From sequence record MH051911: DNA of 50,354 nucleotides, one strand, 5' to 3'. A model generated the notes under the pieces. It made no database searches. It saw nothing but the letters and a program-made list of their open reading frames with translations, and was not told the DNA's origin. Source of the DNA: Enterobacteria phage vB_EcoS_IME18. Every line of letters begins with the position of its first letter. Within the stretch, counting starts at the first letter, position 1. Made by a program: the position numbers and the translations under genes. This document shows positions 15,208 to 26,547 of the stretch, in pieces.

Positions 15208-15611
15208 AATATACCCTCTTTGTCTATTCGTGTGTAAATGGTGTCATAATGTGTCAACAATTGCCATTGTGACATTGCGATGTAGAGCTGTCAATGCCTG
15301 CGAGCCAATTTTAAGCCGTGTAACATTTGTCTAGCTGTCTAGAGTCACTATAGAAATATATAGCTCTCAAAAAAGTACTGTATATATAAACATGCAGATA
15401 GAAATATGCCAACAGTACGCCAGACAATGTAAGACAACTATACACAACTATTACAATATAATTATCTATATATATAAATAAAAAAAACACTATATATATT
15501 ATATAGATACATATATCTATATGTATATTTAGAGGCGTCACAGTGTGTAATTTTGTCACAAGTGCGATTCTAGACAAATATTACATCCGTGACAAGTTAA
15601 AGTGTAATCGA

Positions 15612-15626
15612 TAGCACTTTTTGCTA
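15612..15626 (+). promoter_or_regulatory. palindromic box TAGCA-N5-TGCTA
   Basis: TAGCACTTTTTGCTA inside control region; no good -10 at +22. Confidence 0.4.
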
Positions 15627-15816
15627 AAAATGGAGATGACTACCAGGCGAACTGGGCAACACCAGATCATCCCTCTCACAATCATTGCAATCTCAGCAAC
15701 AAATCAACCAACTGTTGCACACCATGCAATAATCACGTTTCATCATTTGCAATCAATCGCAATCAGAATTATTCCACCTATTCCGATATTGATGGAATAA
15801 TGAGCAATTATTGGAA

Positions 15817-15831
15817 TAGCATTTTTTGCTA
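15817..15831 (+). promoter_or_regulatory. palindromic box (promoter-associated)
   Basis: TAGCATTTTTTGCTA with TATGGT-like hexamer about 22-23 nt downstream; upstream of 15895 gene. Confidence 0.45.
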
Positions 15832-15894
15832 ATGACTCGATCAGGTTGTCGGGGTATGGTTCTGGCCATCAACCAATCAGAAGAGGAAGCAGCA

Positions 15895-16512
15895 ATGAAG
15901 TTAATTTGGTCACTATTCGACGGTTCCGGTCTTGCGGGTCATGAACTGGCAAAGCAAGGTCACAAGGTGATGTGCTTCAACTTTGACGGAGCAGATCACG
16001 GAGATTACGCAAAGTACAATGCCCGGGTTGAGCATCCGAACATTGAGTATGTGAACGTGTTCATTGATGCAACGTTTGAGCGTGATGCGATCGCGGGTGT
16101 GTATGGCAAGCCGGATTTTATTATGGCCTTCCCTCCTTGCACTGACCTGGCTGTTAGTGGTGCTCGTCACTTTGCAAGCAAGCGTGAGCGCGATCCGTTA
16201 TTCCAGGAGAAAGCTGTTGCCACCGCTAGGATTGCTGCGAATATTGGCGACGCCCTGGGAGTGACTTACATCATTGAGAATCCGGTGAGCGTCCTGTCAT
16301 CTGCCTGGAGAAAACCAGATCACTCCTTCAATCCCTGGGAGTATGGCGGCTACCTTCCTGAGAATGACGCACATCCCTGGTTCCCGATGTATATTGCGCC
16401 GCGCGATGCTTACCCGAAGAAAACTTGTCTTTGGACCTCTGACGATTTTGTCATGCCAGAGAAAAAACCTGTAACCTGCCTGACGGGTACTCTGCACAGC
16501 ACAGCAAGCTAG
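15895..16512 (+). CDS. short C5-cytosine methyltransferase-like protein
   Basis: Start reassigned to ATG 15895 (SD AGAGGAAG); motif I-like LFDGSGLAG, PC motif FPPCTD, ENV-like IIENPVSV; only about 205 aa, no obvious target-recognition domain. Confidence 0.5.
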   Translation: MKLIWSLFDGSGLAGHELAKQGHKVMCFNFDGADHGDYAKYNARVEHPNIEYVNVFIDATFERDAIAGVYGKPDFIMAFPPCTDLAVSGARHFASKRERDPLFQEKAVATARIAANIGDALGVTYIIENPVSVLSSAWRKPDHSFNPWEYGGYLPENDAHPWFPMYIAPRDAYPKKTCLWTSDDFVMPEKKPVTCLTGTLHSTAS

Positions 16513-16582
16513 GCGGCAAGTCCGCCAAAACAAAACTGATACGATCCCTGTCGCCGCGTGGATTTTTCAAAGCGATCGCAAA

Positions 16583-16597
16583 TAGCACTTTTTGTTA
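16583..16597 (+). promoter_or_regulatory. palindromic box (promoter-associated)
   Basis: TAGCACTTTTTGTTA; CATAAT 22 nt downstream. Confidence 0.6.
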
Positions 16598-16658
16598 AAA
16601 CTCGATCTGTGCGATTTGGCATAATTACCTCATCGAAACGAGATTGAGGAAAAACAAA

Positions 16659-16844
16659 ATGGCACGTCGCATCACTAAAGACCTTAAAATTCTGAACAAA
16701 GAAAACGTAGTTAAAATCCTGGCTATTTGGGGATACAGCGAAGAGTCAGCAAAGCAGAAGGTAGAGGCTGGTTATGACCTGGCTGTCAAGGCGATGCCTA
16801 ACGACGACGCAAAAGGCATTGCAAACTATGTAGCATTCTTTTAA
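16659..16844 (+). CDS. hypothetical protein
   Basis: Start reassigned to ATG 16659 with SD GAGGA. Confidence 0.45.
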   Translation: MARRITKDLKILNKENVVKILAIWGYSEESAKQKVEAGYDLAVKAMPNDDAKGIANYVAFF

Positions 16845-16859
16845 TTAACTGGCTAACAA

Positions 16860-17045
16860 ATGAAAACGAAATTAGTGCATAAATCAGAAATCAAGATCGG
16901 CGATACTGTTATTCACAACGGAGAGCTTAGAACAGTTGGTAAGGAGTCGATAACCAAAGATGAATTTATGGGGTTATTGTTGTTCGGCGACTCCTATCGC
17001 CTGGGGTACAAATTTGTCGAGCTTGTTGAAGATGTAAAATTCTAA
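16860..17045 (+). CDS. hypothetical protein
   Basis: 61-aa ORF; stop followed directly by box. Confidence 0.4.
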   Translation: MKTKLVHKSEIKIGDTVIHNGELRTVGKESITKDEFMGLLLFGDSYRLGYKFVELVEDVKF

Positions 17046-25110: not shown

Positions 25111-25350
25111 TACGATCGTATCGGCTTTAAGTTCCTCTACGTCTTTCTGGATAATTGAAGGCCAACGCTCGATATATTCATTTTTTATCTCATCGAAAGA
25201 CATATCAAGAGAACTAGTAAACTTCCACAGATCGCAACCAATAACATCCTGAGTCAATCCGTTTTGCTCCATAATTTCGCAGCACGTAGCGCGATAAAGA
25301 AGCCATAAACCTTGCTCAGTTAATTTAACAGGAACCATTTTTTCGCTCAT
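25102..25350 (-). CDS. hypothetical protein
   Basis: Start chosen at ATG overlapping Dam stop (ATGA); 82 aa. Confidence 0.45.
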   Translation of the reverse strand: MSEKMVPVKLTEQGLWLLYRATCCEIMEQNGLTQDVIGCDLWKFTSSLDMSFDEIKNEYIERWPSIIQKDVEELKADTIVQH

Positions 25351-26063
25351 CATACTTTCCTTACCTTTGCTCGTTTGTTTTTCACCGAAGGGCAAATGCT
25401 TGTGATTGGGATGTAGTGAGTCTGTTGCACCTCACCTTCTTTAAGTTCGCGCATAATAAAAATTACCGAACCTTTGTTATTGCCGTCTACGGCCTTTCCA
25501 GTTTCACCGGATATGAAAGCCAGGCGACCAGATCTGGCGTACTCGTTACCGTCGATATCTTCAGTCAAGTCAGCTTCAATCCAGATAATCTCAGCCGCAT
25601 TCTGTCGCGCCTCAGTAAACCACGCTGTGGAATTATCGGCAGGCAACAGAATATCAATCTGATTGTTGTGCTCCATTTGCTCGATCGCCTTCTTGACGAA
25701 TATATCAGGTCGACTATAAGGAGGATTTAACCATACGTGCTTATTCTTACCCCACCAACGTTTTAAGCAGTTTGTTTCTTGTGAGTAGAACTTATCGCAA
25801 ACTTTATTTTCTTCGCTTGCCGCAGCGTCGAGATCATATTTTCCGTAGCGCCCCTCAAGGTATGCAATAACCTCTCGCGGAGTTGACCATAAATCACGAA
25901 CAGCGTCAGGGGTATTCGTCCCCTTGTATCGACGCCCTGAAATCTCTTTGCAGGTTGGCGTTTTCAATGCCTGATAATAACCGCCTGATGCTATTGCTTC
26001 GCGAGTGAATGAGCAACCAGTTTCTGCAAAGTCGATAGTTTCGATATCATTAAAGTCTTTCAT
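25350..26063 (-). CDS. dam: DNA N6-adenine methyltransferase (phage Dam-type)
   Basis: NPPY catalytic motif (WLNPPYS); SD GAGAGGAA. Confidence 0.75.
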   Translation of the reverse strand: MKDFNDIETIDFAETGCSFTREAIASGGYYQALKTPTCKEISGRRYKGTNTPDAVRDLWSTPREVIAYLEGRYGKYDLDAAASEENKVCDKFYSQETNCLKRWWGKNKHVWLNPPYSRPDIFVKKAIEQMEHNNQIDILLPADNSTAWFTEARQNAAEIIWIEADLTEDIDGNEYARSGRLAFISGETGKAVDGNNKGSVIFIMRELKEGEVQQTHYIPITSICPSVKNKRAKVRKV

Positions 26064-26118
26064 TTTTATTCCTCTCGTTTTGGTGAGATAATAATGCCAG
26101 ATTCCATCCCGGCAGTTT

Positions 26119-26133
26119 TAACAAAAAGTGCTA
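26119..26133 (-). promoter_or_regulatory. palindromic box (promoter-associated)
   Basis: TAACAAAAAGTGCTA; CATTAT/TATTAT about 22-25 nt downstream on minus strand; upstream of dam. Confidence 0.5.
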
Positions 26134-26547
26134 TTTCATCATTTCGTAAATTGCGATCTTGAATTGCCCGAATCCGTATGCGACGGCAGAGAAGCCACCA
26201 CGCTCCCGGACCTTTCGGAGAAATTCCCTTTGCTTGTCGCTGACTGGTGACGCCTTTCCTTTGCCTGACTTATTAACCCGCTTGAGTTCTATTGCTGCAA
26301 ACGGGTATCGTGAGTTAACACCAATCAGGATAACGAAGTCTGACACTCCTTTAAGTAATCCGGCCTGCTCATCCCTGAGCGCCGATGTGATTGTTTTTTC
26401 ACCTTCATTGACAGTGTGCCAAAATAGAAGGTGAGGAAAATTGTATTTCAGCCAGGACACACAATCCACCTGATGAGCGTCCTCCTTTCGAGTGTCGCTG
26501 GGATCTCGCTCGTAAAACTCTAAATAATCACCTTTGTCTGTAATCAT
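26131..26547 (-). CDS. VRR-NUC domain nuclease
   Basis: PD-(D/E)XK-type segment GVSDFVILIG...AIELKR typical of VRR-NUC; ATGA overlap with helicase stop. Confidence 0.65.
   Translation of the reverse strand: MITDKGDYLEFYERDPSDTRKEDAHQVDCVSWLKYNFPHLLFWHTVNEGEKTITSALRDEQAGLLKGVSDFVILIGVNSRYPFAAIELKRVNKSGKGKASPVSDKQREFLRKVRERGGFSAVAYGFGQFKIAIYEMMK

Follow-up and report, generated by a model that had tools for sequence, protein, structure and literature searches.

Compact C5-cytosine methyltransferases without a full target-recognition domain form a phage protein family (the phrog_757 type) that has been described before and is annotated in some 1,500 records of phage genomes, and one of its members, the 711-bp dcm gene of phage K42, is the trigger of retron Ec86, also called Retron-Eco1 (preprint: bioRxiv 10.1101/2023.08.16.553469; journal version: Wang et al., Cell Rep 2024;43:114857). 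Here we describe a gene of this family in the genome of Enterobacteria phage vB_EcoS_IME18 (sequence record MH051911; 50,354 nucleotides (nt), one strand), a stretch that we refer to in its entirety as “the window”. An earlier note, made from the sequence alone, had singled out this gene as coding for a short methyltransferase-like protein of roughly 205 amino acids (aa).

The experimental reference for the family is phage K42, whose genome is 95.4% identical to that of the BASEL phage KarlJaspers (Bas06; Hanrivervirus, Drexlerviridae). Expression of K42 Dcm raised 5-methylcytosine (5mC) on the multicopy single-stranded DNA (msDNA) of Ec86, as seen by liquid chromatography coupled to mass spectrometry (LC-MS), which a C82A/E128A/K175A/K176A mutant did not do, and mutation of CCTGG in the msDNA stem abolished defence. 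All four K42 escapers were lesioned in or just upstream of dcm, including a deletion and a frameshift caused by a 1-bp deletion, and in two of these phages a point mutation was located 9 bp upstream of the dcm start codon. The native Ec86 operon is carried by strain BL21(DE3) (10.1101/2023.08.16.553469 for all K42 and Ec86 results in this paragraph).

KarlJaspers likewise has a 711-bp “Dcm-like C5 cytosine methyltransferase” gene, whose product is 55–57% identical to the Tunavirus protein and 57% identical to the window product over residues 3–193 (E = 2e-77). With this identity and the same catalytic residues, the window gene is a member of an experimentally studied family. The K42/KarlJaspers enzyme falls in the same size class (236 aa vs. 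234 aa for the window copy when repaired), with Cys82, Glu128, Lys175 and Lys176 numbered identically; these phages are also Drexlerviridae with a Dam gene, and dcm frameshifts of the loss-of-function type occur on both sides. However, K42/KarlJaspers Dcm is complete whereas the window copy is truncated after residue 193, the recognition segment reads DNPGWAKTGGKS rather than GYSAQHSKLGGKS as in the window, and the K42 frameshifts were selected in the laboratory on a retron-bearing host.

Beyond phages, the classical C5-methyltransferases (M.HhaI, M.HaeIII; PF00145) and DNMT3A/DNMT3B are 13–17% identical to the phage family, which is about 100 residues shorter than M.HhaI, has Lys-Lys in place of the arginine-containing motif VIII, and has no recognisable sequence counterpart of the GN-type motif X. 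In classical enzymes, motifs IX and X, which follow the target-recognition domain, are part of the folded core and of the S-adenosylmethionine (AdoMet) pocket. With recognition assigned to a catalytic loop and a segment of ~35 residues, the phage enzyme would resemble DNMT3 more than the bacterial enzymes with their large recognition domains.

A one-base deletion truncates the gene

The open reading frame (ORF) of 205 codons runs on the plus strand from ATG 15895 to TAG 16510–16512, and its product contains LFDGSGLAG (residues 7–15), FPPCTD (79–84, with Cys82) and IIENPVSV (126–133, with Glu128), in the canonical order that the earlier note had read. A profile search, one of the checks which that note had proposed, matched the product to phrog_757 “DNA methyltransferase” at E = 3.7e-72, so that the ORF is not a chance one; the match covered only positions 14–176 of the 247 in the profile, and its end at position 176 was a first sign that the 205-aa protein is incomplete.

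The window belongs to a T1-like phage (Tunavirus, Drexlerviridae), and intact orthologues at the same locus, with the same neighbours, occur in other Tunavirus phages (pSf-2 gp71, SH6, Shfl1 and LeonhardEuler of the BASEL collection; 90–93% nucleotide and 94–97% protein identity to the window gene), where their annotation reads “DNA methyltransferase”, “putative site specific DNA methylase” or, in other records, “Dcm-like C5 cytosine methyltransferase”. These intact relatives, pSf-2 gp71 included, encode a 234-aa protein in an uninterrupted gene of 705 nt, from which the window gene differs in length by one A. In the DNA alignment, CTGTAAACCTG of the relatives becomes CTGTAACCTG in the window, one A being missing, and a MAFFT multiple alignment maps the deletion to nt 581 of the gene, between window positions 16473 and 16474; accordingly, related phage records align over 727 nt to the 726-nt query. 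Past Val193 the zero frame yields 12 unrelated residues and then a stop, and the normal C-terminus, NLPDGYSAQHSKLGGKSAKTKLIRSLSPRGFFKAIANSTFC followed by a stop codon, is readable in the −1 frame (16473..16598). With an intact relative as query, tblastn recovers two frames of the window (aa 1–198 in frame 1, aa 185–234 in frame 3), and BLASTP similarity between the window product and KarlJaspers Dcm stops at residue 193. The uninterrupted frame of 225–250 aa with LGGKSxKTKxIRSL(T/S)PRGF at its end, as seen in the family, is absent from the window locus, where the zero frame closes at residue 205. The features of the locus are as follows.

15816..15832, plus strand: promoter-associated 17-nt box ATAGCAYTTTTTGYTAA; distance to the dcm-like start codon, 63 nt
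15883..15887, plus strand: Shine-Dalgarno-like GAGGA, 7 nt before the ATG, read from the sequence
15895..16473, plus strand: native part of the Dcm-like C5-cytosine methyltransferase gene, codons 1–193
15916–15930, plus strand: motif I, FDGSG
16132–16140, plus strand: PPC motif with catalytic Cys82
16276–16284, plus strand: ENP motif with Glu128
16417–16422, plus strand: Lys175-Lys176
16462..16467, plus strand: A6 run (GAG AAA AAA CCT), 6 nt upstream of the deletion, the sole candidate slippery site for −1 frame restoration
16473..16474, plus strand: site of the 1-nt deletion (AA here, AAA in relatives), frameshift after codon 193
16474..16512, plus strand: end of the 205-aa product, made up of the out-of-frame tail TCLTGTLHSTAS and the TAG stop (from translation)
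16473..16598, plus strand: stranded coding segment for the C-terminus, 41 codons and a TAA read in the −1 frame, NLPDGYSAQHSKLGGKSAKTKLIRSLSPRGFFKAIANSTFC (from translation and tblastn)
16582..16598, plus strand: second copy of the 17-nt box, overlapping the restored dcm frame at its last codons; distance to the next gene (ATG 16659), 61 nt

The 205-aa gene thus looks short and tail-less because one A has been lost with respect to every intact relative checked, and the short “methyltransferase-like” gene is a frameshifted copy of the known compact family of phage Dcm-like C5 methyltransferases. The lack of C-terminal motifs, which the earlier note had listed among the properties of the enzyme, comes down to a 1-nt deletion in a single phage, the C-terminus being kept both by relatives and by the −1 frame. 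Separate expression of the stranded piece, as in a split methyltransferase, was considered and discarded, as there is no ATG, GTG or TTG between the upstream stop and 16598 and no listed ORF.

Conservation and predicted fold of the intact family

Searching with the 205-aa product returned 4204 homologous protein clusters, and nearly all of the 120 best have 225–250 aa, so that the description of the protein as far shorter than typical enzymes holds for the intact family too, at a size much below that of the classical ones. A phrog_757-type gene is present in 1520 of 50,697 phage records, among them Drexlerviridae of Escherichia and Klebsiella, Dhillonvirus, RB49-like and rV5-like myoviruses, and phages of Salmonella, Vibrio, Shewanella and Roseobacter, and its routine annotation is that of a C-5 cytosine or “Dcm-like” methyltransferase. 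An alignment of 35 members has 44 invariant columns, including G10, S11 and G12, P80, C82 and T83, E128, N129 and P130, and K175. Cys82, Glu128, Lys175, Lys176 and the motif I glycines are kept in the window product at their family positions, but 10 of the 44 invariant columns lie within residues 207–227, in a nearly invariant LGGKSxKTKxIRSLSPRGF block, and all 10 are missing from it; they are found in the stranded 41-codon segment (G207, K209, T213, I216, R217, S218, L219, R222, G223 and A227), which comprises half of the mini target-recognition segment and the terminal helices.

Links to described methyltransferases at the sequence level are faint. The gathering threshold of PF00145 (22 bits) was reached neither by the window product (12.4 bits) nor by the pSf-2 protein (13.2 bits), which match over motifs I–IV only, and six of the 35 family members match this model at E ≤ 0.01, the lowest E-value being 1.3e-6. 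NCBIfam holds no model for the phrog_757-type family, and a HMMER search of all PDB sequences with the family profile gave no meaningful match, the only one being to a kinase at E = 1.9; relatedness to solved methyltransferases is thus visible at the level of the fold only.

The fold was predicted for an intact relative (P0001, 234 aa, 94% identical to the window product) rather than for the 205-aa product itself. The AlphaFold2 model, a confident one (mean predicted local distance difference test score, pLDDT, 89.8; predicted template modelling score 0.88), has a canonical alternating strand-helix core (strands 3–7, 24–29, 50–54, 75–78, 124–130, 143–145 and 177–181), followed by coil at 182–200 and terminal helices at 201–205, 211–217 and 222–230. 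The fold is that of a C5-methyltransferase, DNMT3A/B being the closest, and motifs I, IV (PC) and VI (ENV) follow one another in the expected order, which bears out the C5-methyltransferase-like character first read from the motifs. Between strand 177–181 and the terminal helices, about 35 mostly coil residues (182–216, pLDDT 68–83) stand at the usual place of the target-recognition domain, in agreement with the earlier remark that no obvious domain of this kind is present. The three conserved C-terminal helices occupy the topological place of motifs IX/X in the model, while no match to motifs IX/X was obtained at the sequence level.

From this fold, the conserved residues and the published data on the K42 homologue, we infer how the intact enzyme would work. 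It would be a single Rossmann-type AdoMet-dependent domain in which AdoMet is bound by motif I (FDGSG), a flipped-out cytosine is attacked at C6 by Cys82 of the PPC motif, and Glu128 of the ENP motif holds and protonates the base, with Lys175/Lys176 on strand β7 standing in for motif VIII. The segment of ~35 residues (182–216), together with the catalytic loop, would replace a full target-recognition domain, and the three terminal helices (201–230, RSLSPRGF...) would close the core as motifs IX/X do in classical enzymes. Expressed early in infection from its own promoter, such an enzyme would put 5mC on DNA, a mark that may protect against some restriction systems and that would also be what retron Ec86/Eco1 senses.

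Within the 35-member alignment, the recognition segment occurs as two conserved subtypes (columns about 219–240, residues about 193–210). The first, GYSxQ(H/Y)xKLGGKS, is found in the window (as GYSAQHSK), in Tunavirus and in many others, and the second, NPGWAK(L/T)GGKS, in KarlJaspers.

Consequences for the 205-aa product

Taken together, the sequence comparisons lead us to regard the locus, with a probability of roughly 0.8, as a recently frameshifted and most likely inactive copy of a compact phage Dcm-like C5-cytosine methyltransferase. Loss of the A after codon 193 replaces the last 41 residues by 12 unrelated ones, leaving a product with strands β1 to β7 and the catalytic cysteine, and without half of the recognition segment and all of the terminal helices. 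Because of these two losses, the 205-aa product is expected to be misfolded or inactive. A phage with such a product would have only Dam to depend on, and defences that sense methylation would not be expected to respond to it.

Several considerations weigh against this view. The truncation falls late (residue 194 of 234) and spares all residues mutated in K42, so that residual activity is conceivable; the role given to the C-terminal helices is drawn from conservation, model topology and general knowledge of C5-methyltransferases, and is to that extent putative; and the A6 run just upstream of the deletion could permit low-level restoration of the frame. Furthermore, the K42 homologue belongs to the other subtype of the recognition segment (NPGWAK vs. 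GYSAQHSK) and its behaviour may not transfer fully, and the 73 assemblies in which the truncated protein recurs (see below) may all stem from one phage stock, in which case they exclude random error and are silent on the spread of the allele.

The strongest competing explanation, though an unlikely one, is that the 205-aa product is a functional minimal C5-methyltransferase for which motifs I, IV and VI and the two lysines at 175/176 suffice. Such an enzyme would have kept the four residues mutated in K42 as well as strands β1 to β7, and its gene has a good ribosome-binding site and a promoter-like box of its own. Yet the 41 lost residues hold 10 of the 44 invariant positions of a family with more than 4000 clusters, nearly all listed members have the full 225–250 aa, the PHROG profile runs on for 70 positions past the match, the post-recognition motifs IX/X belong to the core and the AdoMet pocket in classical enzymes according to textbook knowledge, and the 12-residue tail is out-of-frame sequence. 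Hence, between the two options left by the earlier note, a minimal or a degenerate enzyme, the degenerate one is to be preferred, and the minimal one sits poorly with the loss of those invariant positions.

Very unlikely, in our estimation, is the production of a full-length enzyme by −1 ribosomal frameshifting or transcriptional slippage at the A6 run (16462–16467). A −1 shift at GAG AAA AAA C would give ...PEKKTCNLPDGYSAQHSKLGG..., a 234-aa protein with two residues changed (PV to TC), and the downstream segment is still perfectly coding in the −1 frame; however, in the zero frame G AAA AAA C does not have the form of a canonical X XXY YYZ heptamer, we identified no stimulatory structure, and the preserved downstream frame is equally well explained by a recent mutation. 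We compared the gene with its counterparts in 38 named Tunavirus phages whose copy is at least 80% identical at the protein level (39 phages with the window). The arrangement occurs in none of these 38, and all intact relatives use one frame, so the combination of A6 run and deletion is not a conserved recoding signal. The hairpin GGCGGCAAGTCCGCC was rejected as a frameshift stimulator because of its place downstream of the zero-frame stop and because one of its bases is substituted in pSf-2.

Authenticity and age of the lesion

Among separately assembled public sequencing runs, 73 indexed blocks contain exactly this 205-aa protein (e.g., SRR15040755 and SRR15040484), 63 of them on contigs of at least 50 kb, and two loci retrieved from such contigs are exact substrings of the window. 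The accessions of these runs gave no hit in the literature. The window itself corresponds to 50,384-bp public contigs minus a 30-base terminal overlap, and appears to be a complete, circularly assembled Tunavirus genome.

We consider it slightly less probable again than slippage that the deletion is a sequencing or assembly artefact and that the phage truly has an intact 234-aa gene. What speaks for an artefact is the nature of the lesion, by which a short homopolymer changes its length by one base (A3 to A2), with the frame downstream of it intact. Against it, an identical truncated protein in 73 separately assembled runs, 63 times on full-length contigs of ~50 kb, makes a random sequencing or assembly error unlikely, and a collection of about 15 billion proteins does not include the repaired 234-aa sequence. 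A run of three bases is, moreover, not a typical error site for short-read data.

Among the phages compared, the single-A deletion at nt 581 was seen in the window only. As for the age of the lesion, in codons 194–234 of the restored frame the ratio of synonymous to non-synonymous differences is 8:0 against DELF2, 8:2 against IME167 and 4:3 against pSf-2, and the differences from relatives past the deletion fall mostly at third codon positions of this frame. These mostly synonymous changes indicate selection at the protein level until recently, and hence a recent lesion.

Substrate and target specificity

Least probable of all is that the family acts on another substrate or with another cofactor (e.g., RNA as for DNMT2, or carboxy-AdoMet as for C5-carboxymethyltransferase), the first of which the earlier note had also raised, given that the 55–57% identical K42/KarlJaspers homologue puts 5mC on retron msDNA (the LC-MS rise was seen with the K42 enzyme and not with its active-site mutant), that the best structural matches are DNA enzymes, and that six of 35 family members reach PF00145, with E-values as low as 1.3e-6.

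The sequence that is methylated is another matter. A CCWGG target was assumed for the phage enzyme by analogy with the host Dcm and was supported only by the msDNA motif mutants (10.1101/2023.08.16.553469), and in the literature we found no experimentally determined genome-wide target motif for the family. Host Dcm of E. coli (b1961, 472 aa, CCWGG) shares its name and the PC catalytic motif with the phage protein, but is twice its size and has a recognition domain without phage counterpart. Orthology between the two was rejected: when the family profile was compared with MG1655 Dcm by hhalign, the alignment was limited to 22 columns at the PC motif (E = 0.08, probability 0.7%). With no detectable homology beyond this motif, CCWGG specificity cannot be deduced from relatedness. 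MG1655, the host used in the retron study, encodes Dcm itself, yet its control msDNA had low 5mC.

Site counts were discarded as a clue to specificity: CCWGG occurs 95 times in the window, against 51 expected from dinucleotide shuffles and 101 from a maximal-order Markov estimate, and by the latter comparison it shows neither avoidance nor enrichment, so that its frequency is uninformative. The difference in recognition-segment subtype implies that sequence specificity may differ between the window and K42/KarlJaspers enzymes.

Recurrent disruption of the gene in Tunavirus

Over the 1.5 kb around the gene (15500–17000), 143 phage records match the window, almost all of them Escherichia or Shigella Tunavirus; full-length matches are about 86–93% identical, and no record of the phage collection exceeds about 93% identity over the full region. 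In the 39 phages compared, the window included, about seven copies are disrupted, which corresponds to at least six independent events. Apart from the window allele, these comprise ADB-2 (−1 at nt 360), LHE71 (+2 at nt 269), phiD2-2 and FCWL1 (a shared +1 at nt 538, with FCWL1 further rearranged), vB_SsoS_008 (four deletions) and DELF2 (nonsense at codon 62), and a +1 in SH2 changes the last residues only. For the Warwickvirus allele, all but one of the first 40 records listed gave single uninterrupted matches of 705 nt in a rough comparison.

The dcm-like gene (15895–16620) is also accessory, as only 54 records match it by megablast whereas 143 match the 1.5-kb region. In Shigella phage S2_02, only a 43-nt 3' junction (query 684–726) matches, inside a feature annotated as HNH endonuclease; a copy of the 17-nt box falls within this junction, and a further box stands 63 nt upstream of the dcm start codon.

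These data suggest that the dcm-like gene is frequently lost in T1-like phages, and adaptive loss is plausible. It is tempting to go further and see in the frameshift an adaptive escape rather than neutral decay, with the enzyme being a liability in Tunavirus that is knocked out again and again as defences sense its product, and with the Tunavirus subtype, which has its own version of the recognition segment and lacks homology to host Dcm, having a target of its own, not necessarily CCWGG; we hold this combined view as a tentative one, and rather doubtful as it stands. The sensing defences would be, e.g., retron Eco1 (native in E. coli BL21) or 5mC-dependent nucleases. A link between growth on BL21 and loss of dcm was not retained: the gene is disrupted in FCWL1 (recorded host BL21(DE3)pLysS) but intact in IME167 (recorded host BL21(DE3)), and these cases are anecdotal.

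The Dam gene, promoter-like boxes and the upstream region

The second methyltransferase gene of the phage is intact.

25350..26063, minus strand: T1-type Dam N6-adenine DNA methyltransferase, intact, 237 aa, LNPPYS present
26118–26134, minus strand: 17-nt box, 55 nt upstream of the Dam gene

Its product scores well above the curated cut-offs of PF05869 (E = 2.4e-69; 232.8 bits vs. 28.1) and TIGR01712 (E = 5.1e-71; 237.5 bits vs. 97.05), and is a full-length member of the phage T1-type Dam family with the NPPY motif and nothing notably different, so that the separate Dam-type enzyme pointed out in the earlier note is confirmed. The proposal that the phage carries two base-modification activities stands for this half only, as the cytosine enzyme, lacking 10 of 44 invariant positions, is probably not working: the phage has two kinds of methyltransferase gene and probably one working enzyme. 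An anti-restriction role of these genes is the usual assumption and may be plausible, while the BASEL study reported no simple link between them and restriction resistance in Drexlerviridae.

Both methyltransferase genes are preceded by the 17-nt box ATAGCAYTTTTTGYTAA, and the restored dcm frame has a copy as its final 17 nt. Allowing up to two mismatches, the window has 14 copies vs. 0.03 expected, at the following positions.

12612, minus strand: 17-nt box
14406, minus strand: 17-nt box
15611, plus strand: 17-nt box
15816, plus strand: 17-nt box
16582, plus strand: 17-nt box
18161, plus strand: 17-nt box
18680, plus strand: 17-nt box
19180, plus strand: 17-nt box
21342, plus strand: 17-nt box
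26118, minus strand: 17-nt box
28627, minus strand: 17-nt box
29092, plus strand: 17-nt box
45938, plus strand: 17-nt box
49701, plus strand: 17-nt box

The box is always co-oriented with the downstream gene, mostly about 55–80 nt before the start codon, and about 22 nt further on there is a hexamer of the −10 type (TATTAT, CATAAT or TATATT). The box thus looks like the mark of a phage promoter family with a conserved upstream box, which could be UP-element-like or bind a regulator.

Upstream of the dcm-like gene, a stretch of ~690 bp (15208–15894) separates divergent gene blocks and holds no convincing gene. Its core (15440–15535) is very AT-rich, with repeats of the TATATA type in direct and inverted orientation, and several promoter-like sites occur in the stretch on either strand (seven found vs. 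3.9 expected). Across the window, GGCC is under-represented (68 observed vs. 115 by maximal-order Markov estimate) and GATC mildly so (248 observed vs. 318 by the same estimate).

Implications

For annotation, the gene is best entered as a frameshifted (pseudo)gene from the family of phage Dcm-like C5-methyltransferases rather than as a novel minimal enzyme, and cytosine methylation should not be taken for granted in this phage. The compact Dcm-like family as a whole remains a reasonable subject for enzymology. For the biology of Drexlerviridae, the window allele adds a natural example to the laboratory finding that loss of the methyltransferase lets these phages escape retron Eco1.

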